Shown here: positions 37,488 to 62,238 of the stretch, piece by piece | Position numbering within the stretch: position 1 is the first letter of the stretch | Layout of the letters: every line of letters begins with the position of its first letter | Source of the DNA: an uncultured Desulfobacterales bacterium | Lineage (GTDB): Bacteria; Desulfobacterota; DSM-4660; Desulfatiglandales; HGW-15 | Length of the DNA: 64,000 bases | NCBI GenBank assembly: GCA_964647905.1 | Contig: CAZYJR010000020.1 | Coordinates: 577-64,576, forward strand | Direction: 5' to 3' | Program-made: the position numbers and the translations under genes | Notes under the pieces: model-generated | Seen by the model: only the letters and a program-made list of their open reading frames with translations | Told to the model about the DNA's origin: nothing | Databases searched by the model: none

Positions 37488-37714
37488 TCGGCTTATTCTT
37501 TCAGCCCGACCGGCTGTTCTTGTTTGCCCTTGGTCTGCCCGCCCGCGATTTGAAGCCTTCCTTCCTGGTATGGCCTCTCCGGTACAAAGCATAGGAGATC
37601 GGGGTCCGGGAGTCAACCTGGGGCCCTCGGGATTGCGCCTTGACACGCCCCATGGGTTTGAATGAAAATAAAACGCCCCCGGCGGCCCGGTGTGGATTTT
37701 CCAAGGAGGAAGCC

Positions 37715-39010
37715 ATGAGTAAACTTTTGAGCAATGCATCTCCTGAGTTCCGGAAGGCGCTGGAAGTGGGGCGTCCACCCAACGTGGCCCGCCTGTTCCC
37801 CAACTCCAAGGCCTTGATTGTCAGCGGCAAGGTAATAGACAGGGCCATGCTCGCCAAGGGCAAGGCGATTGCAATCGCAGCCAACGGCCGGAACCATTTC
37901 ATAATAAGGGGGGCGCTGCTCGCGGCCCAACGGGCCAATGCAGCCCTGATCATCGAAATAGCCAAGTCCGAGGGCGGGGCCAATGCCTACTGCGCCGTCA
38001 ACCTGTGGAATCTGGCCCGGCAGGTGGACTCCGTCTGCAATGAAATGGGCGTCACCGTCCCGGTGGCCGTGCATGCGGATCACTACGGGATCAAGGGGGA
38101 GGCGGATGCAAAGACGGCCAGGGTGGAGATCCCCAGCATGTTCGACGCCGGCGTCACATCCATAGCCGTTGATGCATCCCACCTGCCCGAGGCCGACAAC
38201 CTGCTGGTCAATATAGATCTCCGCCCCTTTATACCCGGCTGGGCGGGCTACGAGACAGAGGTCGGGGAGATCAAAGGCCAGGCTGGGCTGTCCACGGTGG
38301 AAGAGGCGCTATTCCTCATACAAGGCCTGAACGCCCATGACATATTCCCTGACTGGATAGCCCTTAACAACGGCACCACCCACGGCATCCAGGACGCGGA
38401 TGCGGGGATACAGGTGGAGCTTACCGCCCGGATCCACGACGCCCTGGCCCCTTACGGGGTCTCCGGGGCCCAGCACGGGACCTCGGGGAACGATTCGGGG
38501 CGCCTGAGGAGGATCGCCAAGGAGACCCGGACCACAAAGGCCAACGTGGCCACCGCCCTCCAAATGCTGACCTGGGGGGTGGAGGTCAATGAATACGGAA
38601 ACGCCATATTGGATGAGAACGGAGAGTTCCTGAAGCAGAAGGACAAGGGGGTCACCGAAGAGCTATGGGCCGAGATGGCGGCCTATGCCAAGGAGAGGAA
38701 GTGGAAGAGCGGGGACTACAAAAAACTCAACCTCCCCTTTGAGAACCGCCTGCTGGCCCAGCTGCGTGAGGTCAGGGAGCGCATGACCGAGGCTGTGGCG
38801 GAGTTCGTCTACGGGCTCATAGTGGATGTCTTCGACAGCAGGGATACCGCGCCCTTGGCCGTGGAGAACATATTGGAGGCCGGGTCGTACGACCCCGGGC
38901 CCAAGGCGCGGAGGATCGAGGACCCGGCCGAGTGGACCGAGGAAAAGATCCGGGAGCGCGGGGCGGCATTGGCGAGGGACCGGGGCCCCGCCGGGGACTT
39001 CGACGACTGA
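37715..39010 (+). CDS. fba: Class II fructose-bisphosphate aldolase (long form)
   Basis: The ATG at 37715 follows an AAGGAGGA RBS. Class II metal/substrate motifs VAVHADHYG, SIAVDASH, LNNGTTHG, GAQHGTSGN. Confidence 0.85.
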   Translation: MSKLLSNASPEFRKALEVGRPPNVARLFPNSKALIVSGKVIDRAMLAKGKAIAIAANGRNHFIIRGALLAAQRANAALIIEIAKSEGGANAYCAVNLWNLARQVDSVCNEMGVTVPVAVHADHYGIKGEADAKTARVEIPSMFDAGVTSIAVDASHLPEADNLLVNIDLRPFIPGWAGYETEVGEIKGQAGLSTVEEALFLIQGLNAHDIFPDWIALNNGTTHGIQDADAGIQVELTARIHDALAPYGVSGAQHGTSGNDSGRLRRIAKETRTTKANVATALQMLTWGVEVNEYGNAILDENGEFLKQKDKGVTEELWAEMAAYAKERKWKSGDYKKLNLPFENRLLAQLREVRERMTEAVAEFVYGLIVDVFDSRDTAPLAVENILEAGSYDPGPKARRIEDPAEWTEEKIRERGAALARDRGPAGDFDD

Positions 39011-40060
39011 ATGGAGCATCCTTCGGAAATACGGAACGGCAAGATTCACCCTTGGGTGGAGGAGCTCAAGGAGAACGACCTGGTCCGAGGGGACTACCTG
39101 GTCAAGTTCAAGCGACTGGGAATCACCCGCAGGGGAGACCCCTACCTTAGCATGACCCTTGCGGACAGGACCGGCGAAGTGGAGGCGCGGGTCTGGGAAG
39201 GGGCCGAAGATGTCGGCGGGATGTTCGCCGAGGGGGATATAGTCTCGGTCGAGGGAAAGGCAGGGTCCTATCGGAACGAGGTCCAGCTCATACTCAGCCG
39301 GGTGGAGAAGTCCGAGGCGGTCTCGGATCCCTCCATCTTCCTGGAGTCCACGAGGCATGATGTAAAGGGGATGACGGCCGAGCTGAGGGAGCTCCTGGGC
39401 ACGATGGAGGATCCCCACTTGCGGCGTCTCTCAGATCGCTTCCTCTCGGACCCCGAGTTCGCAACGGACTTCAGGCGGGCCCCGGCCGCCAAGAGCTTTC
39501 ATCACGCCTATCTCGGCGGACTCTTGGAGCATACATTGAGCGTGTGCAGGCTTTCAGCGGCGGTCTCCGGGCACTACCCGGACCTGGACCGGGATCTGCT
39601 GCTTTGCGGTGCGTTTCTGCACGATATAGGAAAGGTGCGGGAGTACACCTATAGCACGTATATAGACTACACGGACGAAGGGAGGCTGATGGGCCATTTG
39701 GTCCTGGGGGCCGCGATGCTGGAGCAGAGGCTCTCCGGGATCAAGGGGTTCCCCCGGTCCCTGGCCCTGAGGCTCAAACACCTGATCTTGAGCCATCACG
39801 GGGAGTTCGATTTCGGCTCCCCCAAGCGGCCCAAGTTCCTGGAGGCCTTTGCGCTTCACCTGGTGGACGACCTGGACGCCAAGATGAGCGGGCTGGACCG
39901 TTTCATGTCCCGCGACAGGCGTGAAGGGTCATGGACTGAGTTCAACAGGCTCTTTGAGCGGTATTTCCTCAAGGGGCCCATCCAGGACCGGGATCCCGCC
40001 TCCCGCGCCTTGGAGCCCGCTGAAGAGGACAAGAGGCAAGGGAGCCTCTTTTCCACTTGA
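39011..40060 (+). CDS. OB-fold + HD-domain 3'-5' exoribonuclease, YhaM-like
   Basis: N-terminal OB fold (YLSMTLADRTGEVEARVWEG) and an HD domain (HHAYLGGLLEHTLSV ... FLHDIGKV ... LSHHG). The start abuts the fba stop. Confidence 0.8.
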   Translation: MEHPSEIRNGKIHPWVEELKENDLVRGDYLVKFKRLGITRRGDPYLSMTLADRTGEVEARVWEGAEDVGGMFAEGDIVSVEGKAGSYRNEVQLILSRVEKSEAVSDPSIFLESTRHDVKGMTAELRELLGTMEDPHLRRLSDRFLSDPEFATDFRRAPAAKSFHHAYLGGLLEHTLSVCRLSAAVSGHYPDLDRDLLLCGAFLHDIGKVREYTYSTYIDYTDEGRLMGHLVLGAAMLEQRLSGIKGFPRSLALRLKHLILSHHGEFDFGSPKRPKFLEAFALHLVDDLDAKMSGLDRFMSRDRREGSWTEFNRLFERYFLKGPIQDRDPASRALEPAEEDKRQGSLFST

Positions 40061-40135
40061 TCGTTCAAGGGCGGGGCGCCGCCGGAGGATGCAAGGCTCA
40101 AAGAGCGGGACTGCTCTCGTGGAGGCGGGAAAGGA

Positions 40136-41164
40136 ATGAGCCCATTGGAGGACATCGCTGCGAGCCGGGAGGGCGCCCGGGGGTTGGTGGACGGAAACAA
40201 CCGCGAAATCAACTACCTGCGTGTCTCACTGACCGATCGCTGCAACCTGAGATGCATTTACTGTATGCCGCCCGAAGGGATTCGGCCTCTTCCCCACGGC
40301 GAGATCCTGACATACGAGGAGATCCTTCACGTGGTGCGCCTGGCCGTCAGCGGGGGCATACGCAAGGTCAGGCTCACAGGCGGCGAGCCGCTGGTCCGCA
40401 GGGAGGTCATGGGCTTCATCCGCCGCTTGGTGGAGCTCCCCGGCCTGGAGCAGGTGACCCTGACCACCAACGGGGTCCTGCTGGCTGAATGCGCGGGGGA
40501 GCTCAGGGACCGCGGTGTGACAGGGGTCAACGTCAGCCTGGACTCACTGCGCCCGGAACGCTTCGCCAAGATCACCAGAAGGGATCTCTTTCATCGCGTT
40601 CGGGACGGGCTGCTGGAGGCGGAGCGGGTGGGGTTCCGCTCCATCAAGATCAATGTGGTGGCCATGCGGGGCATAAACGACGATGAGATACTGGATTTCG
40701 CCCGGTTGAGCCTAGAGAGGCCTTATCACGTCCGGTTCATAGAGTTCATGCCGGTAGGACTGGAAAACGGCTGGAACGACGACAGGTTCATACCAGCAGG
40801 CGAGATCCGGGAGCGGATACAAGAGGTCGGACCGCTCCGCCCCCTGGTTCACAGGCCCCTGGACGGACCCGCGGAGCGGTTCATGCTGGAGGGCGCCCGT
40901 GGAGAGCTGGGCTTCATAGCCGCTCTCTCGCACCATTTCTGCACCTTGTGTAACCGACTCCGCCTGACGCCGGAGGGGCACTTGAGGGGGTGCCTGTTCT
41001 CGGACCAGGAGATCGATCTGAAAGGCCCCATGCGGGCCGGTACATCGGACGAGGCCCTCATGGAGCGGATCCTGTATGCCGTGGAGAGCAAGCCCGGGTG
41101 GCACGGCCGCCTGGTGAACGCCCCCCGCAAGTGCACGCGGCCCATGTCCTCCATCGGGGGCTAG
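40136..41164 (+). CDS. moaA: GTP 3',8-cyclase MoaA (radical SAM)
   Basis: LRVSLTDRCNLRCIYCMP radical-SAM cluster motif, RLTGGEPL, and the C-terminal second-cluster region CTLCNRLRLTPEGHLRGCL. Confidence 0.95.
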   Translation: MSPLEDIAASREGARGLVDGNNREINYLRVSLTDRCNLRCIYCMPPEGIRPLPHGEILTYEEILHVVRLAVSGGIRKVRLTGGEPLVRREVMGFIRRLVELPGLEQVTLTTNGVLLAECAGELRDRGVTGVNVSLDSLRPERFAKITRRDLFHRVRDGLLEAERVGFRSIKINVVAMRGINDDEILDFARLSLERPYHVRFIEFMPVGLENGWNDDRFIPAGEIRERIQEVGPLRPLVHRPLDGPAERFMLEGARGELGFIAALSHHFCTLCNRLRLTPEGHLRGCLFSDQEIDLKGPMRAGTSDEALMERILYAVESKPGWHGRLVNAPRKCTRPMSSIGG

Positions 41165-43083
41165 GTCCCGGAGTCCGGCCCTTGCCCACCTCCTCCGCCC
41201 AGGATCATCCTCCTGTCCCCGGACGCCAGCAGCGGGGCCTGAAGCCTTACCGGCTCTCCTATGTCCTTGAAGAGCAGGTCGCCTTCCCCCAGGAGGTTTT
41301 CCGCCCCCCTCATCCCCAGGAGCATATTGGATTCAATGGGCTTGTTCATCTTGAACGCGGCCCTGGCCGGGATGTTTGCATCCAACGCCCCCTTTACCAC
41401 TTCCCGGCTGGGCTGCTGGGTGGCCATGAGCAGGTGTATGCCCGCCGACCTGGCCTTGGCCCCGATCCTGAAAACCAGGGATTCGACCTCGCGCCGCTCG
41501 GAACGGCCCCTGCTCACCAGGTCCGCGTATTCGTCGCAGATGCAGACGATCCTGGGCTCCACCCGCCCGGTGCGGATCATGTACTCCCCCAGGTCATCCG
41601 CTCCGCACTCCTGCAGGAGGCGGTAGCGGCGTTCCATCTCCTCGGCCATGGCGGAGAAGGCGTTTGGGGCCGGCTCCTCGTCGGGAAACACCAGGGCCCG
41701 GTCATTGAGGAGGAACGGGGATTCCGCCATGTCGTTGAAGGCGGTGCGTTTGGGATCGATCAGGACCAGCCTCAGGGTCTCCGGCGTGTTGGTGATAACC
41801 AGCCCGGCCAGCACCGACCTGAGCCATTCGCTCTTTCCGCTCCCGGTGGTGCCTGCGGCCAGGATATGGCAGTTTTCAGGCTGGGATAGGTCGGCGGAGA
41901 CCAGGTCTCCCTCCAAGTCCACCCCCAGGATGATCCTGGAGCAGCCCCGGCTCGATCTCCAGGATTCGAGCTCCGAGCGGATCCGAGCAAAGTCGACCAC
42001 CTCTCTGTCCGCTCGCTGGAGATCGGCCACCACCCTGCCGTCCGATATGTGGACCAGCGGCGGTGCGCTGAGCTTCAACCTGTGCTGCACCTCCCTGGCC
42101 ACCTTCCGGACCCCCTGGATGGTGACCCCCTTTTCCAGCTTCAGCGGGTAGCGCACAAAGGTGGGCCCTTCCACCGGGGGGCCGTCAATGGAGACCGGCC
42201 TGCCGTACTCACGGAAGATGGCGGCCAGCCGTTCGCCCTGCTCGTGGTGGGCCGGGGACTGTTCCGGCTCGCTCGAGGACACGGCGGCCGGGGGTTGTTC
42301 CTCCGGCGCTGGTCGAGCCACGCCGCTCCTCGGCCCGGGCGAGACCCCGGCAAGCACGCCGATCAGGGATACCAGCTTCTGCTGGGTCTTTCTCAGCTCG
42401 GGACCGGAAAACAGGATCTCTTCCATTTCCGGCCTAAAGGCGACCAAGGCGGCTGGGCCCTGGGATTCCGGTCGGTTGGATCTGGTCAGGATGAGATGAT
42501 ACAAAGCTGCCTGAGCCAGGTCCGCCTCAGGGCAGCCCATGCCCAGCTTGAGCTCCACCAGGCACCAGCCCGGGCGGCCAGGGATCCTGATCACCAGGTC
42601 CGCCAGCCCGGTCAATCGCACGGCATCGCTCCATTGAGGCATACGCAGCCCCAAGCTGAGGCGCTCGTCGGGGAAGAGCTTGATGCGGGCGCCGGGGCCC
42701 TTCTCAAAGTGGTCGCCGGCCTCCCATAGCAGGTCCACCATCCACCGGTTGAGGTTCTTGGCCGCTTCCCAGAGGGCGAGCACCCCGTCCGCAGACCCGT
42801 GCAGGCGGGCCTGCTCCCGTCCCAGGCGGGGGCCTATCAGCCGCTCGTAGATATGAGTCTCCAGGGCCCGGCGCCAGGCCTCCTTGTGAGGGGGTGTATC
42901 GCGCACCGCCTCCTGCCAGGAGCAGGGATGCCGGGGGCTGAAGAGTGAGGAAAAGGACTCGTGGAATATGCTCCCCAGGAGGCGGGCGGCGTGCACGGGG
43001 AGACGCTCGCCGCCCCCCTCCCCGCAGCCTGCACCTTGATAAACGGCCCTTCTGACTTCGCTTACCGAAAGCCTCACCGGCAT
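41161..43083 (-). CDS. Fusion protein: N-terminal RecB/Cas4-type PD-(D/E)xK nuclease domain + FtsK/SpoIIIE-type DNA-translocase ATPase domain
   Basis: 640 aa. Nuclease motif set: GSIFHESF ... GLADLVIRI(13 aa)CLVELKLG ... QAALYHLIL (D / ExK / QxxxY). After a Pro-rich linker come FtsK motor features: GPTFVRYPLKLEKGV, Walker A ILAAGTTGSGKSEW, Walker B IVCICDEYADL, LLMATQQPS. No TM segments were seen. Confidence 0.8.
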   Translation of the reverse strand: MPVRLSVSEVRRAVYQGAGCGEGGGERLPVHAARLLGSIFHESFSSLFSPRHPCSWQEAVRDTPPHKEAWRRALETHIYERLIGPRLGREQARLHGSADGVLALWEAAKNLNRWMVDLLWEAGDHFEKGPGARIKLFPDERLSLGLRMPQWSDAVRLTGLADLVIRIPGRPGWCLVELKLGMGCPEADLAQAALYHLILTRSNRPESQGPAALVAFRPEMEEILFSGPELRKTQQKLVSLIGVLAGVSPGPRSGVARPAPEEQPPAAVSSSEPEQSPAHHEQGERLAAIFREYGRPVSIDGPPVEGPTFVRYPLKLEKGVTIQGVRKVAREVQHRLKLSAPPLVHISDGRVVADLQRADREVVDFARIRSELESWRSSRGCSRIILGVDLEGDLVSADLSQPENCHILAAGTTGSGKSEWLRSVLAGLVITNTPETLRLVLIDPKRTAFNDMAESPFLLNDRALVFPDEEPAPNAFSAMAEEMERRYRLLQECGADDLGEYMIRTGRVEPRIVCICDEYADLVSRGRSERREVESLVFRIGAKARSAGIHLLMATQQPSREVVKGALDANIPARAAFKMNKPIESNMLLGMRGAENLLGEGDLLFKDIGEPVRLQAPLLASGDRRMILGGGGGQGPDSGT

Positions 43084-43092
43084 GGGGTTTCC

Positions 43093-44982
43093 CTACTCAT
43101 CCCAGAGGTAGCTCTCCGGGACGTATTGAAAGAGAGCGGGCGGCGATCCTTCAAGGTATCCCACCAGCGCGGGGTTTTCGCCGGCCAGGCGCCTGATCGG
43201 GTCCTCACCGCATTCCAGCTCCCGGGCGGCCTCCTCCAGGGCCAAGATCTTTCGGGTCTCGAGGAGGGAGAGGACTCTCTGCAAAAGGGCCGGATCCCCC
43301 CGGTCGCGCTCCGCTCTCCTTCCCACCACGTTCTCGGCCAAGTCCCTCAGCCTACCCTCCAAGGAGCGCCTGAGCCAACTCAGGACCGTGTCCTGGGATA
43401 ACGTCGTTCCGCGGGCCGAGAGGTCTCCCGCCTTGGCGTCGGCCAGGACCGCCCTCAAGGCCTCCAACGCGGCCATGACCTCCTGGTCCGGTTGAATAAG
43501 GACCGCCCCCTCCTGCTGGAGCTCCTCCAGGTATTGACGCGTCTTCTTGGCCTGCTTTCCGATGGTCAACCACGGATGGCGCACCAGGAACAGGGAGTCC
43601 AACCCCCCTTGCTTGATCTGTGATCTCACCCGCTTCAGGCGTCCGGCCAGGCTGTTCATGTTTCGGTGGTTGCACAGGCTGACTCCCACCCGCCGCCCCG
43701 GGCCGGCCAGGACCATGTCCACGTCCCTGAGATCGTTTGCATCCTCCTCCCTCCAGGCCTCGTCCAATACGTGCACCAGCAAAGGCAGGGCCCCGTGGAC
43801 CAGGTCGTCGGTCTCCTCGGGGCTCAGGGTCCGGAGGGCGGATTCCTTCCTCCGCACCCACTCCCCCGCCAGGAAGTCTTCCACCGAGGATTCCACCGGA
43901 CCGGCGGACCCTTGCAGGGAGGCCCCTCCAGTCCATGATTCGTATGCCTCGGCGCAGAATTGCAGGACCTCGCGAACGGTCCTCGGCTCGTCCTGCATGT
44001 GGGCCCGGAGCTTGCCCTCCAGCACCCGAAAGAACCGCTCCTGCATGTTCGGGGCGAGCCCGCCCGACTCCAGGCGCACGCGGGCGAGCTCCAGGGCCTG
44101 GTCCGGGTCAAGGGGGTTGAGGCTTGACCTGTACACGGAGAGCCGGTCGTAGTTGGGCTTCATGACCGCCTCCTCCAGGACTTCGAGAAAGTAGGCCTGG
44201 ACGCACGATACCATGAGTACGTTGGTGCATTCGTCATGGAGGTGCTGGGCCACCTGGCCCAAGGCGAAAAGCCCCTCCCTGTCCCTGGGGTACCTCTGAA
44301 TCGCCTCCACCTGGTCGAAGCAGAACAGTACAGGGATGGGGGCGAAGAGCCTGAGGAGCTCCTCCACTATCTCGCGGGCCAGGAATTCGGCGTCGCCCGG
44401 CTCTTCACCTTCTTCCTGGACCAGGGCCAGCCTCCTCATGCTGTGCTCGGGCAGGGATCGGCCCATGAGCCAGGCCGCCGCATCGCGCCTGAAGCGGCCT
44501 CTCAGGAGGTGCTCCAGGGCCAGGCAGAGGTTGGGCGAGAGGCGTCTTTCCTCTCCCAGGCGCTCGGTGAGCTCCCTGAGCTCGCCGGCCGAGACCCGCA
44601 TCCTCCCGGCTATACGATGCAAACGGGCCTTTGTCACCCAATCCAGTTGAGGTGTCCCTCCCCTCACCGGGCGGAGGAGGCTCTCCACAAAGCACTTCCT
44701 GATGTGCCGCCATATGCGGTGGGGGCTGGATTGGAGCCGGATGGACACGAAAAGAGCGGGCCTGCGGCTGCTTCGTATGTGGCTGTAGAGCCTTCCCAGG
44801 AGATGGGTCTTGCCCGTGCCCGCCTCGCCGAACAGGAGCACGGATGAGCTCCGGCGCTCGGATGCCACCCGGTCCAGGACCGCCAGGCAGAGCTCAAAGG
44901 CCTTCCTCCCGATATCCGGGACGTCCGCGCTGGGCTCGGACCAGGGGTCGGTGGCTATGGCTTGCCGGAACGGGTTTCCCAT
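43093..44982 (-). CDS. AAA+/P-loop NTPase with a long helical C-terminal region (family not resolved)
   Basis: 629 aa. N-terminal GNPF..DPW lead-in, Walker A VLLFGEAGTGKTHLLGRL, Walker B PVLFCFDQVEA. About 350 aa of helical sequence follow. It lies 9 nt upstream of the nuclease-FtsK gene. Confidence 0.75.
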   Translation of the reverse strand: MGNPFRQAIATDPWSEPSADVPDIGRKAFELCLAVLDRVASERRSSSVLLFGEAGTGKTHLLGRLYSHIRSSRRPALFVSIRLQSSPHRIWRHIRKCFVESLLRPVRGGTPQLDWVTKARLHRIAGRMRVSAGELRELTERLGEERRLSPNLCLALEHLLRGRFRRDAAAWLMGRSLPEHSMRRLALVQEEGEEPGDAEFLAREIVEELLRLFAPIPVLFCFDQVEAIQRYPRDREGLFALGQVAQHLHDECTNVLMVSCVQAYFLEVLEEAVMKPNYDRLSVYRSSLNPLDPDQALELARVRLESGGLAPNMQERFFRVLEGKLRAHMQDEPRTVREVLQFCAEAYESWTGGASLQGSAGPVESSVEDFLAGEWVRRKESALRTLSPEETDDLVHGALPLLVHVLDEAWREEDANDLRDVDMVLAGPGRRVGVSLCNHRNMNSLAGRLKRVRSQIKQGGLDSLFLVRHPWLTIGKQAKKTRQYLEELQQEGAVLIQPDQEVMAALEALRAVLADAKAGDLSARGTTLSQDTVLSWLRRSLEGRLRDLAENVVGRRAERDRGDPALLQRVLSLLETRKILALEEAARELECGEDPIRRLAGENPALVGYLEGSPPALFQYVPESYLWDE

Positions 44983-45887
44983 TTGCCGTCCCTGAGTACA
45001 ATTCCTATGAAAAATCCGCCTTTGCCGTCTGGTACTGCTGCCGCCCGCTCTGAGTCGTTCATCTGCGCCGGGTCCACATGGCGGTGGAGCCAGACGCGGC
45101 CTTGGCGCGCCAGCTTGAGCACCGCGCGATCAAAGCTCTCTTTGGGCGCTCCCACCGCATCCCTCAGCCTGCGCAGCGATACCATGGCCTCCTGAGCGGC
45201 CGCGGGCTCCATCTCCAGGGCCTTGCTTATCACATTGTCGCCCAGGTCCTCCTCGGGCGCCTCGGCTTGTATCTCTCCCGCCGGAGCCTCCCGGCTCGGG
45301 CCAGCTTTCCCTGTGAGCTCCCGCACCAGGGCCTCCAGGACCGCCTGATCGGAGACCCCTGCTTCCTCCAGTTTTTTTCGGACCGCCTGATACTCTTTCA
45401 AAACCTTTCCCAGATACGGGGCGGGGTCGGGCGGCAGCGCCGAAAAGCGCCGGGCCTTCTGCCTCGGTGCAAGCGGGTATTGAAACACCTTCTTTTCAGA
45501 TACAAGCCCGGGAAGTACCTTCTTCCTCAACGCCTCAGCGGCCGTCTTTGTGCACCCGAAGAGCGATCTCCCCAAGGCCCTGTCCAACTCGGCCAGGGTC
45601 AAGGCCTTGTTAGAGAGGATCCGCGCCGTCTCGGCCCCGGCAACCGCCTCCGGATCCTTCACCCAGAAGCGCTTTCCCCCTCTTGAACCCGGCCACGAAA
45701 AAACGCCGGCTGAAGGGCCTTCTCTTTCCAGCCCTCGGGTCAGGACGGCCGGTTTCACCTTGAACGGGCGTGGCAGTTGCTCTGAGATCCGCTTTGCAGT
45801 CAGCGGAGCGGGGGAGCGTTCCAGGACTTTTCGGGCTACCGACAAGGTGTCGCTGCTGAGCTCATCGGTTTCATGGGATCCTTTCAT
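44955..45887 (-). CDS. Hypothetical protein, possibly multi-winged-helix DNA-binding (first gene of the three-gene operon)
   Basis: The start is reassigned to the ATG at 45887, which follows GGAGGTG. 310 aa, helical, with no catalytic motif. wHTH-like stretches: SVARKVLERSPAPLTAKRISEQL and FDRAVLKLARQGRVWLHRH. It overlaps the AAA+ gene by 28 nt. Confidence 0.55.
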   Translation of the reverse strand: MKGSHETDELSSDTLSVARKVLERSPAPLTAKRISEQLPRPFKVKPAVLTRGLEREGPSAGVFSWPGSRGGKRFWVKDPEAVAGAETARILSNKALTLAELDRALGRSLFGCTKTAAEALRKKVLPGLVSEKKVFQYPLAPRQKARRFSALPPDPAPYLGKVLKEYQAVRKKLEEAGVSDQAVLEALVRELTGKAGPSREAPAGEIQAEAPEEDLGDNVISKALEMEPAAAQEAMVSLRRLRDAVGAPKESFDRAVLKLARQGRVWLHRHVDPAQMNDSERAAAVPDGKGGFFIGIVLRDGKWETRSGKP

Positions 45888-46250
45888 CGCCACCTCCCCG
45901 GCGCCTCCGACGGCCGATTCCCACCCCGGGCCGTGGCGGGGATCATCTTTAAGACAAGTCGAAACATACCACCGCACCTAAAATCCCTGCAAGGCAAAAG
46001 CGGGTGGGATAGCTTTCCCTCCCTGTAACCTTACCGTTGTCCTTGTGCGCCGGGTTGCCATCAACCCGCGTGATGTATGTCCTTGCAAAATTGAGGCTTG
46101 CTTTGATCATCCCTAATGGGTACTATGCTCGCATCTATGCATGCTTTCTTAGGATTTGGATAGCGATTTTGCCGCACTAGCGAGGGAGCTATGCCTCAAG
46201 GCGCACCCAAAGCCCCATTTCTCATGAGAGACGTGGGGCTTTGCGTTATG

Positions 46251-46548
46251 GAGACAGATGCGCAATGGGGGGCGACGTTCAAGCTGCGGGAGGTCCTATG
46301 CGGGAATCTGAACGAGTCGGGCTTGAATCTCGAATCCTGCGGTTTTCAAGATTGTAGGGCAAATGTGGAATCCGATGGCCTCCATCGCTACAATTGGAAT
46401 TACTCACTTCTCGGTTTTGAGCGTTAAGAACTCAAGACCCAATCCCCCTGTTCGCCGGTATTCTAACTACCATACCGTTGTCATGGCCCGCAAGGAAATC
46501 AAGGCCGTGCTGGCGAACTTGTACGGAGACAAATAGTTGATGGCCTCG
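46251..46548 (+). pseudogene. Tyrosine recombinase remnant (integron-integrase/XerD-like clade), frameshifted and with an internal stop
   Basis: Frame 1 reads ..TFKLREVLCGNL.. (compare the integrase helix ..LLFLYREVLG..). A shifted frame reads PVRRYSNYHTVVMARKEIKAVLANLYGDK-TAG-LMAS, which matches the ..RLPVVLTREEVKAVLA.L.GDKWLMASLLYG.. pattern with TGG(W) changed to TAG at 46534-46536. The similarity stops after LMAS. Confidence 0.45.
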
Positions 46549-46597
46549 TTCGACAGACCAATACCCAGCCTTGGTTTAAGGCCGAAAAGGTGGTAAA

Positions 46598-46894
46598 ATG
46601 CCAGTGAATTATAATTTCGAATGGGACCCTATAAAGGCCCGCGAGAACCTAAATAAGCATAATGTGGGCTTTGACGAAGCGGCGACGATATTTAGAGACT
46701 CAAAGGCGCTTTCCATATTTGATCCAGACCACAGCGAAACCGAAGACCGATGGATAACTATGGGTATTTCAGAAAAGGGACGGTTGCTGATTGTCAATCA
46801 TAGTTTCCTAGAAGAAAGTCGAGAAGAAGTCAAGATCAGAATTATGTCAAGCCGAAGGGCTACAAAAAGGGAAACAAAAAAATACGGTGACTAA
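46598..46894 (+). CDS. brnT: BrnT-family toxin (DUF497)
   Basis: FEWDPIKARENLNKHNVGFDEAATIF...DPDHSETEDRWITMGISEKGRLLIVNH...IRIMSSRRATKRETKKY is the canonical BrnT pattern. Confidence 0.85.
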   Translation: MPVNYNFEWDPIKARENLNKHNVGFDEAATIFRDSKALSIFDPDHSETEDRWITMGISEKGRLLIVNHSFLEESREEVKIRIMSSRRATKRETKKYGD

Positions 46895-46896
46895 AC

Positions 46897-47097
46897 ATGA
46901 GAAAAGAATACGATTTTTCGAGAGGTGAAAGAGGCAAGTTTTATCGTCCAGATATGAAGCTTAACATTCCCATTTATCTTGATGATGAAGTTTCAGCGTT
47001 TGTGGAGAAGATTGCTTCCAAGAAAGGAATTGATCGATCTTCAGTAGTGAACGATTTGCTAAGGGGCGATATAAAAATCGCTGAGGCAATGGAATAA
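46897..47097 (+). CDS. brnA: BrnA-like antitoxin
   Basis: 66 aa, MRKEYDFSRGERGKFYRP...IPIYLDDEVSAFVEKIASKKGIDRSSVVNDLLR. It starts 3 nt after brnT. Confidence 0.75.
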   Translation: MRKEYDFSRGERGKFYRPDMKLNIPIYLDDEVSAFVEKIASKKGIDRSSVVNDLLRGDIKIAEAME

Positions 47098-47207
47098 GGG
47101 GATAGGAACTTGCTTTTTAGGTAGCAGGATAGCGGAAGGCATCTTTGGGTGTCAACAAGAAACGCCTAAACTTGTTCCGCTGGACGCGCTCCGAACTTCC
47201 GGCGGAC

Positions 47208-47337
47208 ATGCGGCGCTCACTCCGTTCGCGACCTTGTCCTCGTCGCACGGAGCGCGCCTCGGAACAAGGCCGCTTTACCTGGCTCTGCGTCCGTCAAGCC
47301 TTCGGCTTTCCGCCCGTCTCGCAGGTGAGCGCCGCAT
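47208..47337. repeat. GC-rich imperfect palindromic element between TA modules (13-bp perfect terminal inverted repeat plus internal complementary blocks)
   Basis: ATGCGGCGCTCAC (47208-47220) is the exact reverse complement of GTGAGCGCCGCAT (47325-47337). CTTGTTCCG (47171-47179) is complementary to CGGAACAAG (47260-47268). The GC-rich block is embedded in AT-rich sequence. Confidence 0.6.
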
Positions 47338-47408
47338 TACCCAATAAACCACTTGACAACATGACCTCTAAAATGTGCACGTGAATGCACATTATAAGGA
47401 GATATGAT

Positions 47409-47642
47409 ATGAAAACTGTAACATTTACAGATTTTAGAAACAAGGCATCAAATTTTATTACTGAAGTTGAACATGGTGAAACTATAATCCTTTTAAGGCT
47501 ATGAAAGCCTATTGCTGAAGTAATTCCGTTTTCTGATAAATTACGATGGACTCCTTCATGGAAACGCCAAAACGTCAGCTTGCAAATTCAAGGAAGCGAC
47601 CTTTCATAAGCAATTATGGAAGAACGTGAGTCCGAGCAATGA
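47409..47642 (+). pseudogene. Phd/YefM-family antitoxin, disrupted (in-frame TGA at 47502-47504 plus a frameshift before the C-terminus)
   Basis: MKTVTFTDFRNKASNFITEVEHGETIILLRL-TGA-KPIAEVIPFSDK... has the typical YefM/Phd N-terminus. The terminal ..AIMEERESEQ-TGA, which overlaps the vapC ATG, is in a different frame. Confidence 0.65.
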
Positions 47643-47950
47643 AACTAATAACAGATTCATCTGCTCTATCAAAAAGATATGTACTTGAAGCCGGCAGTGA
47701 TAAAATAAATCAGTTTTTACAGAATGCCTCACAATTAGGTTTATGTACCATTTTAGTGTCTGAAATAATATCCGCTCTAAATCGGAGACGTCGAGAAAAG
47801 ATTTTAGCATCAAATGATTATCGGACAATAAAAAGACAATTGATGGAAGATGTCCATGATGCAGTCATGCTTCAAGGGACGCCTTCTGTTATTTCTCATT
47901 CAGTAAGACTTTTCCTGAGTTTTAGGTACCGCTGCCTCGGTAGGTTATAA
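47639..47950 (+). CDS. vapC: PIN-domain toxin VapC, probably 3'-truncated
   Basis: MKLITDSSALSKRYV..(Asp6)...ILVSEIISAL (Glu). At 103 aa the distal acidic PIN residues are missing. The reading frame ends 20 nt before the IS fragment. Confidence 0.6.
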   Translation: MKLITDSSALSKRYVLEAGSDKINQFLQNASQLGLCTILVSEIISALNRRRREKILASNDYRTIKRQLMEDVHDAVMLQGTPSVISHSVRLFLSFRYRCLGRL

Positions 47951-47969
47951 CTCCCTGCAACCATTGATA

Positions 47970-48582
47970 TTACTGGCTAGACAGCTGTAGAACCCAACTA
48001 TCCTTCACCTGATACCCGAATGTGGCGAGAATGCGGCTCTGGATTTCGCCGGGTTCTTCAATGGACATCTGATGTGAATCTGAATGCACTTGCCAGGTGA
48101 GGACGCTGAGGAGCTGCTCCATTTGTTCAACGGCCGTCCGTGCGCTGAGGCCGTCCCCAATTTGGAGCTCAAGGAGCCTGAGCGCGGTAAGGGCGAAGAC
48201 GCAGCAGAGGAGATGACAGCGGATCTTGCTGTCGGTCCAGTGAAACAGAGGCTTGACCCGGAGCTGGGATCTGCTCACCTGGAACTGCCTCTCGATGGAG
48301 GCTCGGTCAAGGGACGCCTGTACGACCTCCTCCGTAGTCCGGTGGTGCTTGTCTGTCACGATGATATTCTTTTTTATTGAAGAACCTCCTGGCGATCTCC
48401 TCGATCTGGTCTTTGGAGACGCGTTCCCATTTCTCCCAGTACCTCTCGGAGCTCAAGGCCTTTATGTCCACCGGTCGGATCTGCTCGATGGCCGTACTCC
48501 TGTACCAGGCCTCCAGGGCCCGTTTGCTCCAGGGCTCGACCATTCGGTTGGCCCAGGTACTTGAGATCATCCCCGGCGTCAA
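47970..48582 (-). pseudogene. IS1634/IS4-like transposase remnants (two overlapping out-of-frame fragments)
   Basis: ORF 47970..48359 (..LFHWTDSKIRCHLLCCVFALTALRLLE...EIQSRILATFGY..) and ORF 48307..48582 are in different frames. The C-terminal ..E.Q.RIL...G.. tail also occurs in the intact transposase at 59505..61199 (NELQRDILSILDV) and in the fragment at 58062..58313 (SELQDRILAILGL). Confidence 0.6.
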
Positions 48583-48626
48583 AAATTGGTTGACTGGTGT
48601 TTACGAATAGTATACTTATCAAAGCA

Positions 48627-57948: not shown

Positions 57949-58061
57949 GGGATCAAAAGCTTGTGGCCTGCGGTTTCCTGGTGCGCTAGCCCGAGTTTCC
58001 TTCTTATCGTGAGGCAAGCCGGTATTATCTGAATAATCAGGATGATACGGCATGCCTCGCC

Positions 58062-58313
58062 TTACCCTAAAACCTCGATTTTGTCTTTGCTGAGGCCCAA
58101 AATCGCCAGGATCCGGTCTTGTAGCTCCGAGGTCTTCGTCAGTACGGTTTGCTGGCGCGCGGCCTTCTTCCCCCGCTTTTTGGGGTAGACGTTGATCACT
58201 TCCCGAATCGTATCGAGTTCTGTGAGGAAGCGCGGCATGGACAAGGTCAGACCGGCCCGGCTCACACGCCTCAGAGCCAATGCCCTCAGCAACAAGGCGA
58301 TCGTGCAGTACAA
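58062..58313 (-). pseudogene. IS1634/IS4-like transposase C-terminal fragment
   Basis: The 83 aa ORF ends ..LTELDTIREVINVYPKKRGKKAARQQTVLTKTSELQDRILAILGLSKD. It has the same C-terminal architecture as the intact transposase at 59505..61199. The catalytic region is missing. Confidence 0.55.
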
Positions 58314-58382
58314 ACAGTGGACGCGGATTTTCGGAATCCGTCCAGTGGTGAAGCGGCCACCAGCTCCCGGTCCGCCGCTCCT

Positions 58383-58883
58383 TTATGAACGATTATCCTC
58401 GCCAACGATTTGCAAAGCAGCCGTGATTATATTATCGGACACTCTAAACCCGTTTGAGCGAAGCGCCAATAACAAAGGCTCCACCTTTGAGGTCAGGCCC
58501 TTTTTTTTGGCTTTTATTATGATGGCTATTGTTCCAACAATGCTGATATTAAAGACCTCAGCACATTTCTTCGCTGCCTTGTCATCTATCGCGGCTGCAA
58601 AATCCTTGTTCTGAAAGGCAAAAGCGATGACCTGGGATTCACCTTTGCCGAGGTTCCACTCAAATATTATTGCCGGAACTTCTATCCTCCTGAGCTTTGC
58701 CTGATAATCCTGGGCTTTGAGCCATTCAATAGCCGGATCATGCTCCTTATGGGCATTTATTTCCTCAAAAACACCCTCCGGGATAACGAGTTGTTCAAAC
58801 AAGCCCGACAGAAAATCAGCGCAGCCGATTTTGGCAAGGGATATAATCGGAGAAGCATTGACTACAAGCTTATCCGACTTCAT
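58383..58883 (-). CDS. DUF3368-family PIN-like nuclease (putative toxin)
   Basis: LVVNASPIISLAKIGCADFLSGLFEQLVIPEGVFEEI is the DUF3368/PIN-like N-terminal pattern. It overlaps the upstream UPF0175 gene by 14 nt. Confidence 0.7.
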   Translation of the reverse strand: MKSDKLVVNASPIISLAKIGCADFLSGLFEQLVIPEGVFEEINAHKEHDPAIEWLKAQDYQAKLRRIEVPAIIFEWNLGKGESQVIAFAFQNKDFAAAIDDKAAKKCAEVFNISIVGTIAIIIKAKKKGLTSKVEPLLLALRSNGFRVSDNIITAALQIVGEDNRS

Positions 58884-59115
58884 CGATCAACTCCTCAGGC
58901 GTGAGTTGATAAGGTGAAACTTTATGTTCATATAAATGCTCAAGAAATTCCTGCCGTGATATATCGGCGATTTCAGCAGCCTTGGACTGAGAAATTCTGC
59001 CGTCCTCATACCATTTGACCAGGGCTGTTATTTTCATTGATCGGACAAATTCAGCAGGCGTCTGTTTGAATGCCGCAAACGCTGTGTCCGGCACATCTAC
59101 TGTCAATTGTGTCAT
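58870..59115 (-). CDS. UPF0175-family protein (putative antitoxin partner of DUF3368)
   Basis: 81 aa: ..KITALVKWYEDGRISQSKAAEIADISRQEFLEHLYEHKVSP.., the characteristic UPF0175 HTH-like core. Confidence 0.7.
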   Translation of the reverse strand: MTQLTVDVPDTAFAAFKQTPAEFVRSMKITALVKWYEDGRISQSKAAEIADISRQEFLEHLYEHKVSPYQLTPEELIDEVG

Positions 59116-59479
59116 GGGTCAGGCCCTCCTGAAATTATATAATCCAATATCCATTTGATATACAACTTGGATTTCGCTCTTTGAAAATGGCCGTTCTTCT
59201 TTTTCGTGCTGAATTTGGTTCATCGACGCGGAAAGAGGGATTCTCAAAATCCGCTCCGGAACCGGCCGTACCGCATCCCTGGGCACAGGCTGGCATGAGG
59301 GCGAAGTTGTCAAGGCCATGCGCCTTCTGGGTTGGCTCCGCCAAGCCTTGACAGGCTTGCCTGGCTCGTGCCCTGCAGAATTGCGGGCGATGGGCGGGAT
59401 GCTCCTTGTCATTGGGTCGTCTGCCAAATTCCGGTTCAAATGTCGAAGAGGCATATTCATTTGATCTAGGCCCAACCAG

Positions 59480-61400
59480 TTATTGTTCTAATTGCATTAG
59501 CTGCTTAGCTGCTTTTAGAAAGATATTGGTATGTATAGCATTCCTCCGGAACATCAAGTATCGATAGAATATCGCGCTGTAGCTCGTTAAGCTTGGAAAC
59601 GAAACCATATAATTTACCATCAGGAAGATTCATTTCTCCCTTCACAACGAATTCGAACTCTTTAAGAAGATATTCGGTCCTTGGCTTTCGCACATTTTTT
59701 CTGTTTGGCATGAAGTCATCAAGGCCTTTGTCCCTTTCGTTGATATTTTTTCTTGCTGTTCTCTCGATCAAGACAATGACTTGTAGGGCGATTTTAAAGA
59801 GTAGTAATAGTGCTTCAATTCGCTCAGGTGTATGGAGATAAATTGGCTCAAGGTTATAACTACTTTTAACTCTTCGGTTGATGTGCTCACTTTTGTATTG
59901 GTTCTTATGGGCCATCATTGCATCAGTGATAGATAGATCCTCTTGCGGCTTGTTTGTTATAAGGGGATAATACCCGCAGTAATATAGTTCACTTTCATAT
60001 GCTTTTTCGTCGAAGAGCAGTTTTAAACTGAAGTGATCGTTCACAACTTCAGTTTTTTGCGGAAGGTTGTTTTTTGAGGGACGCCCTCTCTTGGCATTCT
60101 TATATGATATAGTAGGATTATTGATTATATTGTATTCAAAAAAACCTGATGTATGATGCTTTTTTAAAACTTGGTCACATGCTTTTTGAATACTTTCTTT
60201 AGTTTTTAGGTTGTATTTATTCAATTTATTGCTAATTTCATTGAATGCAATGCGTGTTTTTTCTATGCGAGCATCAATCGTTTTGCGTTTCCTGGCAGAT
60301 AAAGCCTGATCATAAAGAATGATCATTCGGAAAGCGTACTCCTTCTCCTCATGTGTCACACGGAGAGGAACTTCAAAACCACGATTCATTTGTTCTTTGT
60401 ACGGTATAAGAACTTCTTGTTTGTGCTGTTCCAATGCTTCATTAAGTGCATTTTTATAGGTGTCATACATCGGTGCTGGCGCAATGAAGAACCCCTCGTT
60501 GTCGTGTATATGCGCCATATTGTCTTTGGTGATGAGTTTTGAGTCGGCAACATAAAGAAAATCACGGTTACCCAAAAGGTCGATTAGATTGTTCCATTGC
60601 TCAACATATGTCGTCACATCTGCGGTGTTTCCACTGTAAGCCTTTTGAAATAATGGGAATGCACTGTCAGAGCTGACAGACAATGACCAGACTAGCTGCT
60701 TCAAATCTTCGCGATACTTTTTGCTGTACCCAAAAGAGATTTTGATACTCTCATTGGTTCTATTTTTGTCACAGTTGCCGTAAACGGAAGCCGAAGTAGT
60801 ATCATTATGGCAAAGCTTTGATTGAATTTCAAATTCTTCGATCATGCGCTGGGTTAACTGCGTTTCAAGGTTCTCAATGCCATAACCGTATACAGCATCT
60901 AATGTATCAGCTAATCGATCATCGAAGTATTCATAGTGTGGTATATCAGGATAGATGGTTTCAAGGACTGTAGTCTTCTTTGCAAACTTGCAAAGTCTAT
61001 AAAGTTGCAATACCTGAAACATAACACCCGTAATCATGGCGACACAGGCTTGCCCATGAGAGAGCACTTTCCTCCTCGGATCAAGTGGCACGTTTTCATC
61101 AATGATCTCAGCGATGCCGCATCTTTCGAAGTAATGTTGGAGTATGGGGGCAAAGCCAACGCCTTTGGTCTCAACGTCTTCCAGTATGCCTTCGGCCATC
61201 GGTAGGGTATCCTTTCCTTGGAATTTTAGAAGGATACCCTGCCATAATGAGAAGAAGGTGTCCAGAAGCCTTACTATCGATTACGGCCTTTTAGAGAAAC
61301 TTATGATCCTCAACCGCTCAAAAACTCGATTTTTAGCTGTTTTTCAGCCAAAAGCTAAATTTCCTAAACGACCAAGAACAAAGAGCGAAATGTGAGATAC
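59480..61400 (-). mobile_element. IS1634-family insertion sequence (ends not resolved)
   Basis: The span covers the transposase gene plus AT-rich flanks. The truncated SBP pseudogene ends at 61449, suggesting the upstream IS end lies at ~61400-61445. I could not identify terminal inverted repeats by eye. Confidence 0.5.
59505..61199 (-). CDS. IS1634-family (IS4-related) DDE transposase, apparently intact
   Basis: 564 aa from an AT-rich gene. The N-terminus GFAPILQHYFERCGIAEIIDENVPLDPRRKVLSHGQACVAMITGVMFQVLQLYRL is typical of IS1634-type transposases. FLYVADSKLITKDN marks the DDE Asp region. Confidence 0.85.
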   Translation of the reverse strand: MAEGILEDVETKGVGFAPILQHYFERCGIAEIIDENVPLDPRRKVLSHGQACVAMITGVMFQVLQLYRLCKFAKKTTVLETIYPDIPHYEYFDDRLADTLDAVYGYGIENLETQLTQRMIEEFEIQSKLCHNDTTSASVYGNCDKNRTNESIKISFGYSKKYREDLKQLVWSLSVSSDSAFPLFQKAYSGNTADVTTYVEQWNNLIDLLGNRDFLYVADSKLITKDNMAHIHDNEGFFIAPAPMYDTYKNALNEALEQHKQEVLIPYKEQMNRGFEVPLRVTHEEKEYAFRMIILYDQALSARKRKTIDARIEKTRIAFNEISNKLNKYNLKTKESIQKACDQVLKKHHTSGFFEYNIINNPTISYKNAKRGRPSKNNLPQKTEVVNDHFSLKLLFDEKAYESELYYCGYYPLITNKPQEDLSITDAMMAHKNQYKSEHINRRVKSSYNLEPIYLHTPERIEALLLLFKIALQVIVLIERTARKNINERDKGLDDFMPNRKNVRKPRTEYLLKEFEFVVKGEMNLPDGKLYGFVSKLNELQRDILSILDVPEECYTYQYLSKSS

Positions 61401-61448
61401 AATCTTAATATATCATAAGTACGCGCTCAGGCAACAGTCAATTCGTAG

Positions 61449-61751
61449 TCAGTAGTCGGTGGCGAAGTATGAGGCGGTTTCCGCGGTTTTCTTGTGGGGG
61501 AAGGAGGCGAACACCTTGCCGCTGCGGACCCGGTGCCCGCAGGCACCCCACGTGGCAAACGTGAAGGCCGTGTCAAGACCGGACGCCGCGAATGCCCGGC
61601 GAACCACTTCGGCCGTGAAGCCGCAGTCCGGAAGCTACTTGGAAACGTACGGGTCCCACTCTCCGGTCGCGATGGTGACGGTCTCCGCCGCCGCCGAAAA
61701 CCCGAACAACTGAACGGCGCACACCAGCAGAACGGCCCATTTCATCCTCAT
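61449..61751 (-). pseudogene. Solute-binding protein (family-3/PAAT-like) 5' fragment with an internal TAG, truncated next to the IS
   Basis: Minus-strand translation gives MRMKWAVLLVCAVQLFGFSAAAETVTIATGEWDPYVSK-TAG(61635-61637)-LPDCGFTAEVVRRAFAASGLDTAFTFATWG.... This shows a signal peptide and the ATGEW.PY motif of SBP_bac_3 proteins. Only about 100 codons remain. Confidence 0.6.
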
Positions 61752-61788
61752 GAGTAGTTGGTTTCGCCCTGATCCCCAAACCGATTGG

Positions 61789-62238
61789 CTACTCCATTTC
61801 CCGTAATTTGGCCAGATCGGAGCGGTCCTGGCTTCGGTTGGATATCTCCTTTGACTTGATCAAGTTGGCCCGGTCAATGAAGTTCACCGTCTGTCCACCA
61901 TAGGCCCCTTGAACCCGGTTTTCCCAGATCTTCCTGAAATCGAGGCCTTTCAGCGAGGTAATGATGTCGATTCGAACAGGCTCGTATCCGAGTTGGACGA
62001 TTTTGTCCGGTGTGGAGAAATCGTCGGGAGTCAGGTCCAGTGACCCGAATCCGAAGTCCTGGAGGGCGCGCAATATCTTTTCCGCGTTTTCGAAGCTGGC
62101 TTCAACAAGAATGTCGATGTCCTTCGTATATCGGGGTTCCACATGATAGGCTAAAGCAAAGGCGCCGATAATGCAGTACTTGACGTTATGCTTGTTCAAC
62201 AACGCTAAGAACTCTTCGTAGTCTTTTTCCGTTTTCAT
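61789..62238 (-). CDS. Nucleotidyltransferase-fold protein (TA-associated type, family not resolved)
   Basis: 149 aa: ..YCIIGAFALAYHVEPRYTKDIDILVE.. is the G.(x)n.DxD NTase pattern. Confidence 0.55.
   Translation of the reverse strand: MKTEKDYEEFLALLNKHNVKYCIIGAFALAYHVEPRYTKDIDILVEASFENAEKILRALQDFGFGSLDLTPDDFSTPDKIVQLGYEPVRIDIITSLKGLDFRKIWENRVQGAYGGQTVNFIDRANLIKSKEISNRSQDRSDLAKLREME

Follow-up and report, generated by a model that had tools for sequence, protein, structure and literature searches.

The window analysed here is a stretch of 64,000 nucleotides (nt) from an uncultured Desulfobacterales bacterium (contig CAZYJR010000020.1), and our subject is an operon of three minus-strand genes within it, named g1, g2 and g3 in their order. 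The open reading frame (ORF) listing and a direct translation check place g1 at 44955-45887 (310 amino acids (aa) from an ATG), g2 at 43093-44982 (629 aa) and g3 at 41161-43083 (640 aa). Public gene calls likewise give g1 310 aa, while an alternative GTG start at 45977 would make 340 aa. The overlap between g1 and g2 measures 28 nt, a gap of 9 nt separates g2 from g3, and g3 is convergent with the plus-strand gene moaA (40136-41164), which it overlaps by 4 nt. The original prediction, made from the sequence alone, had described three coupled same-strand genes with these same spacings, all of which were confirmed by the translation check. A simple scan found 5 terminator-like sites against 4.5 expected from shuffled sequence, 3 of them within g3, g2 and g1 on either strand, and the lack of an excess fits a single transcription unit. 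The guanine-plus-cytosine (GC) content of the operon is 0.64-0.66, against 0.45 at 46-48 kb; its composition is native, as had been proposed.

From its sequence, g3 is predicted to be a soluble PD-(D/E)xK nuclease joined via a Pro-rich linker to an FtsK alpha-beta motor. The nuclease domain, of the PDDEXK_1 or RecB-AddB-Cas4 type, covers aa 1-235 (42379-43083, minus strand, as are all features of the three genes given below) and carries the motifs GSIFHESF (aa 37-44), GLADLVIRI (159-167), CLVELKLG (174-181) and QAALYHLIL (191-199). The Pro/Ala/Ser-rich linker (aa 236-271; 42271-42378) is variable in both length and sequence, with alignment columns ~270-330 gapped and unconserved. It is followed by an FtsK alpha domain (aa 272-340; 42064-42270; Pfam FtsK_alpha, E 0.015 over aa 272-339) and by a RecA-like FtsK beta motor (aa 373-616; 41236-41967; Pfam FtsK_SpoIIIE, E 5e-34 over aa 373-559), in which we located Walker A GTTGSGKS (aa 411-418; 41830-41853), Walker B CICDEYAD (aa 514-521; 41521-41544) and the sensor motif MATQQPSR (aa 553-560; 41404-41427). 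All the motifs that the original prediction had quoted for g3 and g2 are present at the expected residues.

Residues H41, D162, E177, K179, Q191 and Y195 of the nuclease domain are invariant in 30 homologues, and an alignment of 13 full-length homologues shows no variation in the Walker A and Walker B residues. PF12705 (PDDEXK_1) matches 19 of 30 homologous N-terminal domains (best E 1e-11) and no other Pfam family does so; the N-terminal 250 residues of the window g3, taken by themselves, gave no Pfam match. The nuclease-domain profile found no match among PDB sequences, and the nuclease assignment rests on PF12705 and the invariant motifs. PF12705 together with PF01580 is carried by hundreds of full-length g3 homologues, and PF17854 is precomputed in many. 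On these grounds g3 is predicted to be the effector of the operon, with an active nuclease. Moreover, when the nuclease domain alone was run with HMMER against all 1.84 billion representative proteins, 161 relatives were returned, of which the complete ones are essentially all 600-660 aa long with the domain N-terminal. This nuclease subfamily thus appears to be found almost only as an FtsK fusion.

The closest solved structure to the motor is FtsK of P. aeruginosa (2IUU, E 1.3e-47), with an alignment that starts at residue 272. The best NCBIfam model is also cellular FtsK (E 2e-42), and here the alignment reaches no further than position 1234 of 1355, short of the gamma domain. g3 ends 24 residues past the motor and has neither a membrane anchor nor a gamma domain, the KOPS-binding winged helix-turn-helix (wHTH). 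PF12705, 2IUU and the invariant residues therefore bear out the earlier description of g3 as a RecB/Cas4-type nuclease plus an FtsK motor devoid of anchor and gamma tail.

For g2, an AlphaFold2 model built on 19 homologues reached a predicted local distance difference test score (pLDDT) of 87 and a predicted template modelling score of 0.81. The top 20 Foldseek matches of this model in the PDB were all ORC1, Cdc6, Orc4 and archaeal Orc1 proteins (E 1e-6 to 1e-4), and these were followed in the ranking by RdrA and BrxC, two ATPases of defence systems. By sequence, g2 matches Pfam AAA_16 and AAA_22, and otherwise only at the P-loop level. The model thus assigns g2 to the ORC/Cdc6-type AAA+ proteins, with further domains at its C-terminus, and we presume that it acts as a loader or switch. 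Its AAA+ core (aa 26-290; 44113-44907) contains Walker A GEAGTGKT (aa 52-59; 44806-44829) and Walker B LFCFDQVE (aa 219-226; 44305-44328), the latter with Gln in place of the catalytic Glu (pattern hhhhDQxE). Among 52 homologues G52, G55, G57, K58, D223 and E226 are invariant, and Q224 is found in at least 90%. The Gln replacement suggests that g2 binds ATP and hydrolyses it slowly, as an ATP-bound switch and not as a cycling motor. Close to its N-terminus, within the zone of the 28-nt overlap with g1, g2 bears an NPF motif (aa 3-5; 44968-44976) whose residues N3, P4 and F5 do not vary among homologues, in sets of 19 and of 52, with a conserved DPW coming after it. This tripeptide may be a docking peptide for g1 or g3.

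Past the AAA+ core, the model shows a lid up to about aa 351, two long helices, an alpha/beta domain, more helices and a C-terminal winged helix. The second P-loop NTPase of the original prediction is thus more specifically of the ORC/Cdc6 type, and its helical extension of ~350 aa resolves into the lid of the AAA+ module, a linker of helices, the alpha/beta domain and the terminal winged helix. The alpha/beta insert (aa 408-497; 43492-43761) was modelled as alpha-beta-beta-beta-alpha-beta-alpha-beta with pLDDT mostly 79-94, and it has no conserved D...(D/E)xK residues. A profile of 52 sequences of this insert gave MutS2 as its best PDB match (E 0.22), a per-member Pfam scan returned noise only, and hhalign against the g3 nuclease profile gave a probability of 0.2%. 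From its position, modelled topology and absent catalytic residues, we regard the insert as a candidate inactive restriction endonuclease (REase) domain (iREase). The C-terminal winged helix (aa 564-619; 43126-43293) was predicted as helices at 564-577, 582-589 and 593-602 and strands at 579-581, 607-610 and 616-619, with block-mean pLDDT of 74-92 over 561-620. This H-beta-H-H-beta-beta order is a winged-helix-like pattern, and the model thus places a wHTH at the end of g2.

The window g1 itself has no match in family scans, and a word-indexed search with it returned two sequences only, owing to its fast evolution. We therefore gathered 50 g1 homologues from syntenic loci. Their per-member Pfam matches are mostly to winged-helix families (RecX_HTH1, SelB-wing_2, HTH_20, RPA_C, TBPIP, MCM_C and TFIIE_beta), and the family profile matched the tandem winged helices of SelB in the PDB (E 8e-5), as well as Hop2, with the matches of the profile falling at successive positions. 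The AlphaFold2 model, based on an alignment of two sequences, was poor overall (pLDDT 55), and its Foldseek matches were weak winged-helix ones (Fur, MarR, RPC62). It should be noted that the Pfam, PDB-profile and fold matches of g1, mostly winged helices, are all weak.

Winged helix 1 of g1 (aa 11-77; 45657-45857) was modelled as H-H-H-beta-beta and is the part covered by the Hop2 and SelB profile matches; its pLDDT is 81-90 over residues 11-60 and goes down to about 70 at residue 77. Winged helix 2 (aa ~79-130; 45498-45653) was modelled poorly, with low confidence, and at profile positions 78-132 a weak resemblance to the winged helices of TFIIF-alpha and RPA32 (E 0.1-0.4) was seen. The C-terminal winged-helix-like domain (aa 213-300; 44988-45251), with three helices and a long beta wing in the model (pLDDT 60-77), is the best-conserved part of g1 (K249, F252, D253, H270, D287 and G290) and gave weak winged-helix matches only (AlkZ-rel, WHD_CHMP7, Z-alpha). 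g1 is thus a protein with about three winged-helix units, in agreement with the wHTH-like segments first noticed in it, and is presumed to be a DNA-specificity or adaptor subunit. With the one of g2 added, g1 and g2 together have about four winged helices.

We then examined the distribution of the three genes. A scan with g3 over one genome per species (185,579 species) detected relatives in 239 species genomes, and 80 loci were fetched. Among the 64 non-redundant loci with at least 3.2 kb upstream of g3, 57 have g1-g2-g3 in the same order and on the same strand, one has g2 without a detectable g1, and six have g3 alone. Moreover, in a metagenome search started from g2, all seven full-length g2 homologues with room on their contigs have g1 before and g3 after them. 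The co-conservation check proposed with the original prediction therefore came out in favour of the triad from both ends. The three genes also diverge together: at 47% identity in g3, g2 shows 36% and g1 26%, so that the rates rank g1 > g2 > g3. Across phyla, g3 identity is 41-52%. These findings indicate that the three genes are a genuine co-inherited, co-diverging unit under joint selection.

The loci with g3 alone are L011, L014, L030 and L036 (g3 at 10001-~11890 in each), L024 and L049, and they have neither g1 nor g2 within 10 kb upstream or in the 0.1-10 kb downstream. In L011, L014 and L030, the three loci aligned, none of the nuclease residues varies. The four Desulfobacterales loci of this kind form one clade with a common context, groEL - small ORF - YgiQ-like radical-SAM gene - g3. 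Either g3 has been kept alone over a long time, or g1 and g2 lie elsewhere in those genomes.

A further arrangement was observed in the Blastocatellia contig L069, where a g1-like gene (2236-3072) lies downstream of g3, while the close relatives L080, L082 and L083 have g1-g2-g3. The order in L069 may reflect rearrangement at the locus, an additional copy or an error of assembly.

To which known systems can the triad be related? A type of "HerA/FtsK capture systems" has been defined computationally (NAR 2024;52:1005, section 22; PMC10853773), and in one set of them the motor has an FtsK-alpha domain "captured" from cellular FtsK. In the model as restated later (PMC12839542, NAR 2026), the wHTH domains position the machinery and foreign DNA is fed by the motor into the nuclease; both papers come from the same group and are purely computational. 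The domain set of the triad fits the Orc/Cdc6-coupled type of these systems: g2 corresponds to the Orc/Cdc6 AAA+ protein, with its further alpha/beta domain and its wHTH at the C-terminus, g3 provides an REase of the active type, as predicted from its sequence, and a HerA/FtsK motor preceded by an FtsK-alpha domain, and g1 is the additional fast-evolving multi-wHTH protein. In the published class, the Orc/Cdc6 protein has an inactive REase inserted between its AAA+ core and the C-terminal wHTH; the alpha/beta insert of g2 sits at this place and is a candidate for such a domain. The published neighbourhoods were called mobile and conflict-associated by their authors (PMC10853773), whereas the window family is largely vertical, syntenic and not island-linked.

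With PADLOC v2, the three proteins, 50 g1 homologues and 52 g2 homologues gave motor or P-loop matches only (SspH, mad8, Avs2 and BrxC). Named defence systems were rejected, as there was no system-level match and PADLOC v2 holds no model for the triad. The original prediction could not place the composition in any named system; no named or experimentally characterised system indeed matches, but the triad is not unplaced, as it fits the computationally described class (PMC10853773).

The best PADLOC match of g3 is the C-terminus of SspH (E 6e-45; g3 residues 347-620 against positions 1472-1754 of a model of 1766). As in DndFGH/SspFGH, an REase lies directly upstream of an FtsK-type motor in one polypeptide, and there is a separate multi-wHTH subunit, g1 being analogous to DndG with its triple wHTH. 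The differences are that g3 has 640 aa against ~1,560-1,770 aa for the SspH models, and that the triad has an ORC/Cdc6 partner instead of a kinase. DndH/SspH proteins, of ~1,600-1,700 aa, combine an inactive SWI2/SNF2 part, a DAM-like module, target recognition domains, an REase and HerA/FtsK. PADLOC revealed no DndF/SspF or DndG/SspG homologue for g1 or its 50 homologues, and P-loop-level similarity only for g2; a specific kinship of g1 to DndG or SspB was not detectable with these models. No dnd or ssp modification genes adjoin the operon.

BrxC of BREX has a described plan (AAA+, helical bundle, wHTH, alpha+beta domain, wHTH) that resembles g2, but g2 is half the size and the similarity is at the P-loop level only, in 6 of 52 members (best E 1.5e-5). 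The DQ Walker B of g2 distinguishes it from BrxC, from RdrA of RADAR and from the ORC-Cdc6 ring loaders, and its partner is an FtsK-nuclease and not PglZ/PglX, as for BrxC, or MCM, as for ORC. In HerA-NurA and RecBCD/AddAB, as in g3, a DNA motor feeds an attached nuclease, HerA belonging to the HerA/FtsK superfamily. RecB/AddB nuclease domains are linker-tethered members of the PD-(D/E)xK (PDDEXK_1) family. However, NurA is a separate protein with a different fold, RecBCD/AddAB use superfamily 1 helicases and not a ring translocase, and an ORC/Cdc6 partner and a multi-wHTH subunit are absent from all of these machines. In the triad, family scans gave nothing above noise for NurA or HerA, the sole PADLOC HerA match having an E of 5e-5 over the P-loop.

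Both motor domains, alpha and beta, are common to g3 and FtsK/SpoIIIE, as are Walker A, Walker B and the Gln sensor. g3 differs in having a nuclease instead of the N-terminal membrane domain, in lacking the long linker and the gamma domain (KOPS/XerD), and in being a second, specialised copy in very few genomes. We considered g3 as a cellular FtsK paralogue for division and rejected this, given the missing membrane and gamma domains and the fused nuclease, which is invariant and apparently active.

How might the three proteins work together? FtsK hexamers translocate double-stranded DNA (dsDNA), ORC/Cdc6 loads MCM rings, and HerA-NurA, RecBCD/AddAB and DndH couple a motor to a nuclease. By analogy with these families, we infer a succession of selection, loading and pumping with degradation. 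The winged helices of g1 and g2 would select the DNA site or structure to act on. ATP-bound g2, as a slow switch, would then recruit, assemble or license a g3 hexamer around dsDNA, in the way that ORC/Cdc6 loads the MCM ring. Finally, the g3 ring would pump DNA at the expense of ATP and six tethered nuclease domains would cut the threaded DNA, a step resembling HerA-NurA, RecBCD/AddAB and the REase-FtsK end of DndH/SspH.

On balance, we lean towards a machine that acts on invading DNA (plasmids, conjugative elements and phage genomes), which it would intercept and degrade. The link to defence is drawn from the SspH motor match, the capture-class domain set, the fast evolution of g1, the rare and patchy family and the faster divergence of g2 and g3 than of the flanking FBA and MoaA. 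The architecture of the three proteins and their joint selection also speak for this role. A fast-evolving DNA-recognition subunit is typical of conflict systems.

The inheritance of the family weighs against this preference. A neighbour-joining tree of 76 g3 proteins groups by phylum, with one clade for Desulfobacterales (including the window), one for Planctomycetota, two or three for Acidobacteriota, one for Myxococcota and one for Gamma/Verrucomicrobia. Flanking genes are kept among loci down to 54-70% g3 identity. In the nearest relative, L007 (71% g3 identity), moaA, the HD-domain gene and the aldolase gene likewise lie downstream, and the triad stays at the same chromosomal site in both. 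The flanks (window 37640-41164 against L007:3914-7378) are 77-90% identical (FBA 90%, MoaA 84%, HD-domain protein 77%), compared with 71% for g3, 76% for g2 and 81% for g1 over a 43-residue C-terminal fragment present on the L007 contig. Thus g2 and g3 diverge faster than FBA and MoaA, and about as fast as the HD-domain protein. Eight of the nine annotated contexts are metabolic or housekeeping ones, with neighbours that differ among phyla, and in these eight no integrase, restriction-modification or other defence gene was found. A single copy was present at each stable chromosomal site examined. Neither the 72,556 plasmids of PLSDB, a weak negative as few of them come from the carrier phyla, nor 2.9 million viral contigs held a full-length copy. 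The native composition of the operon points the same way, and in its flanks neither direct nor inverted repeats of any significance were found, nor a tRNA or a structured RNA (Rfam match). Overall, the window triad family is largely vertical and syntenic, without a link to defence islands.

In the same direction, a Desulfobacterales clade retains an intact g3 beside groEL without adjacent g1 or g2, and no profile method confirmed the inactive-nuclease identity of the g2 insert. The loader step is drawn purely from the parallel with known families, and the literature yielded no experimental report on the Orc/Cdc6-coupled HerA/FtsK capture class. Likewise, the anti-invader role, and with it the "defence-like" label of the original prediction, is deduced entirely from domain logic. 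Synteny kept across relatives regardless of islands, which had been named beforehand as evidence against a new system of this kind, is what we observed, with a tree that follows phyla and flanks that are retained. The caveat entered at the time, that a repair or segregation role was equally possible, is strengthened by the same tree and flanks and by the housekeeping contexts.

In three records of the tree, the metagenome-assembled genomes L017, L054 and L060, labelled Heliobacteriaceae or Heliomicrobium, g3 is nested in Acidobacteriota clades. They have several flanking genes in common with Acidobacteriota loci; for instance, L060 has six in common with L080, and L017 has five in common with L027. 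Their taxonomic labels are probably wrong.

The inheritance of the family would also suit a cellular DNA-maintenance machine working on the host chromosome, a reading under which a few lineages with large genomes would hold it as an accessory system for repair or segregation, passed on vertically. Its jobs could include the clearing or resecting of broken or trapped DNA, the processing of stalled or terminating replication intermediates, and the removal of DNA from the division plane. Such a role accords with a phylogeny that follows phyla, the conserved chromosomal position and flanking genes among relatives, the housekeeping character of 8 of 9 contexts, the absence from plasmid and viral collections and the native composition. 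Moreover, g3 is well conserved across phyla, and in the Desulfobacterales clade the lone g3 has been stably retained beside groEL without loss of its catalytic residues. Repair is also what the nearest analogues in function, HerA-NurA and RecBCD/AddAB, carry out, and the motor of g3 has cellular FtsK as its closest match. However, the triad is very rare even in the carrier phyla (239 species genomes), and this rarity implies that it is dispensable. Very fast evolution of g1 would be unusual for a protein recognising a fixed chromosomal feature, and, unless some step discriminated self from non-self, a free hexameric translocase with six active nucleases would put the cell's own DNA in danger. 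At the domain level, the closest relatives (the DndH/SspH end, BrxC and RdrA) are defence proteins, and the triad diverges faster than its neighbours FBA and MoaA. We regard such an accessory maintenance system as possible but rather doubtful. Its mechanistic form, in which the ORC/Cdc6-like protein would load the FtsK-nuclease ring on the cell's own DNA for repair, termination processing or clearance, we hold to be a shade more doubtful still. It would amount to a bacterial pairing of an initiator-type loader with a ring motor and could apply in Planctomycetota, Acidobacteriota, Desulfobacterales and Myxococcota, with a g3 able to work alone in one Desulfobacterales clade.

Neither in the operon nor adjoining it did we find a modification gene or another self-marking function. 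This would suit an abortive-infection suicide module, in which g2 and g1 sense a cue from the invader and release the FtsK-nuclease on any DNA, the host chromosome included, killing the infected cell instead of selectively clearing the invader. The resemblance of g2 to switch-like ORC and to STAND-type ATPases such as RdrA and Avs, the Walker B DQ, which suggests a latch and not a motor, and the BrnT toxin-antitoxin gene just upstream in the window would all be in keeping with it. On the other hand, the DNA-recognition domains, three in g1 and one in g2, argue for selectivity towards a DNA site or structure and not for a soluble trigger, and the family scans detected no sensor domain for small molecules or phage proteins. 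Vertical inheritance outside islands counts here as it does against any defence role. We consider a suicide module improbable.

FtsK-family pumps and Orc/Cdc6-like initiators also occur on conjugative and integrative elements (PMC10853773). The triad may accordingly be compared with a domesticated or remnant replication or transfer module of a mobile element, composed of an initiator, a winged-helix origin binder, an FtsK pump and a nicking or processing nuclease. For an FtsK-type DNA pump there is a precedent in TraB of Streptomyces, and NCBIfam gave weak g3 matches to plasmid TraB and conjugative TraD. The triad is moreover a self-contained cassette whose flanks differ among phyla. Nevertheless, we found no relaxase, origin repeats or boundaries, and no integrase among the 10 ORFs scanned between 46.6 and 63.6 kb, in a scan that was not aimed at integrases. 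Plasmid or viral copies were not found, the triad is present as a single copy at the stable chromosomal sites examined, and the nuclease is of the RecB/Cas4 type with a full degradative motif set and not an HUH or Rep-type nickase. An origin of this kind therefore seems very improbable, and interception of invading DNA remains the role that we prefer.

The triad is not categorically new, as it belongs to a computationally predicted class. What we add is that the class criteria were checked for the window triad family and that an ORC/Cdc6 fold is predicted for g2. The nuclease subfamily almost exclusive to the fusion, the vertical inheritance without a defence-island link and the intact g3 persisting alone are also new here. 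If the proposed mechanism is true, the triad would be a compact three-protein case of an ORC/Cdc6-type ATPase controlling a hexameric pump with its own nuclease. To our knowledge, ORC-type control of a ring motor is known for ORC-MCM in eukaryotic and archaeal replication, but no demonstration of it exists for FtsK-family motors. The small size of the system puts biochemistry and cryo-electron microscopy within reach, and there are cultured carriers (Sorangium strains, Planctomycetaceae SH248 and Planctomycetales 10988). It would allow a first experimental test of the "HerA/FtsK capture" hypothesis and could offer a simpler system in which to study the REase-FtsK end of DndH/SspH, which is poorly understood. 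Its vertical, syntenic pattern raises the question of whether the class is immune or serves the host chromosome.

Concerning the surroundings of the operon, the original prediction had placed it at the boundary of a region rich in toxin-antitoxin, integrase and insertion sequence (IS) genes. The integrase part was not recovered among the ORFs scanned as described above, while the toxin and IS parts were. Among the nine annotated contexts, a toxin gene and IS debris, on one side, are found in the window alone. They lie in two low-GC patches, at 46000-48600 and 58000-62300, with a GC content of 0.41-0.49 against ~0.61. The first patch, upstream of the operon, contains the BrnT-family toxin (46598-46894) and also ORFs without a Pfam match, and the ORF at 47970-48359 may be an IS remnant. 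The second patch contains a DUF3368 protein (58383-58883), an IS4-type transposase with DUF4277 and DDE_Tnp_1 (59505-61199) and an AbiEii/MNT-type nucleotidyltransferase (61789-62238).

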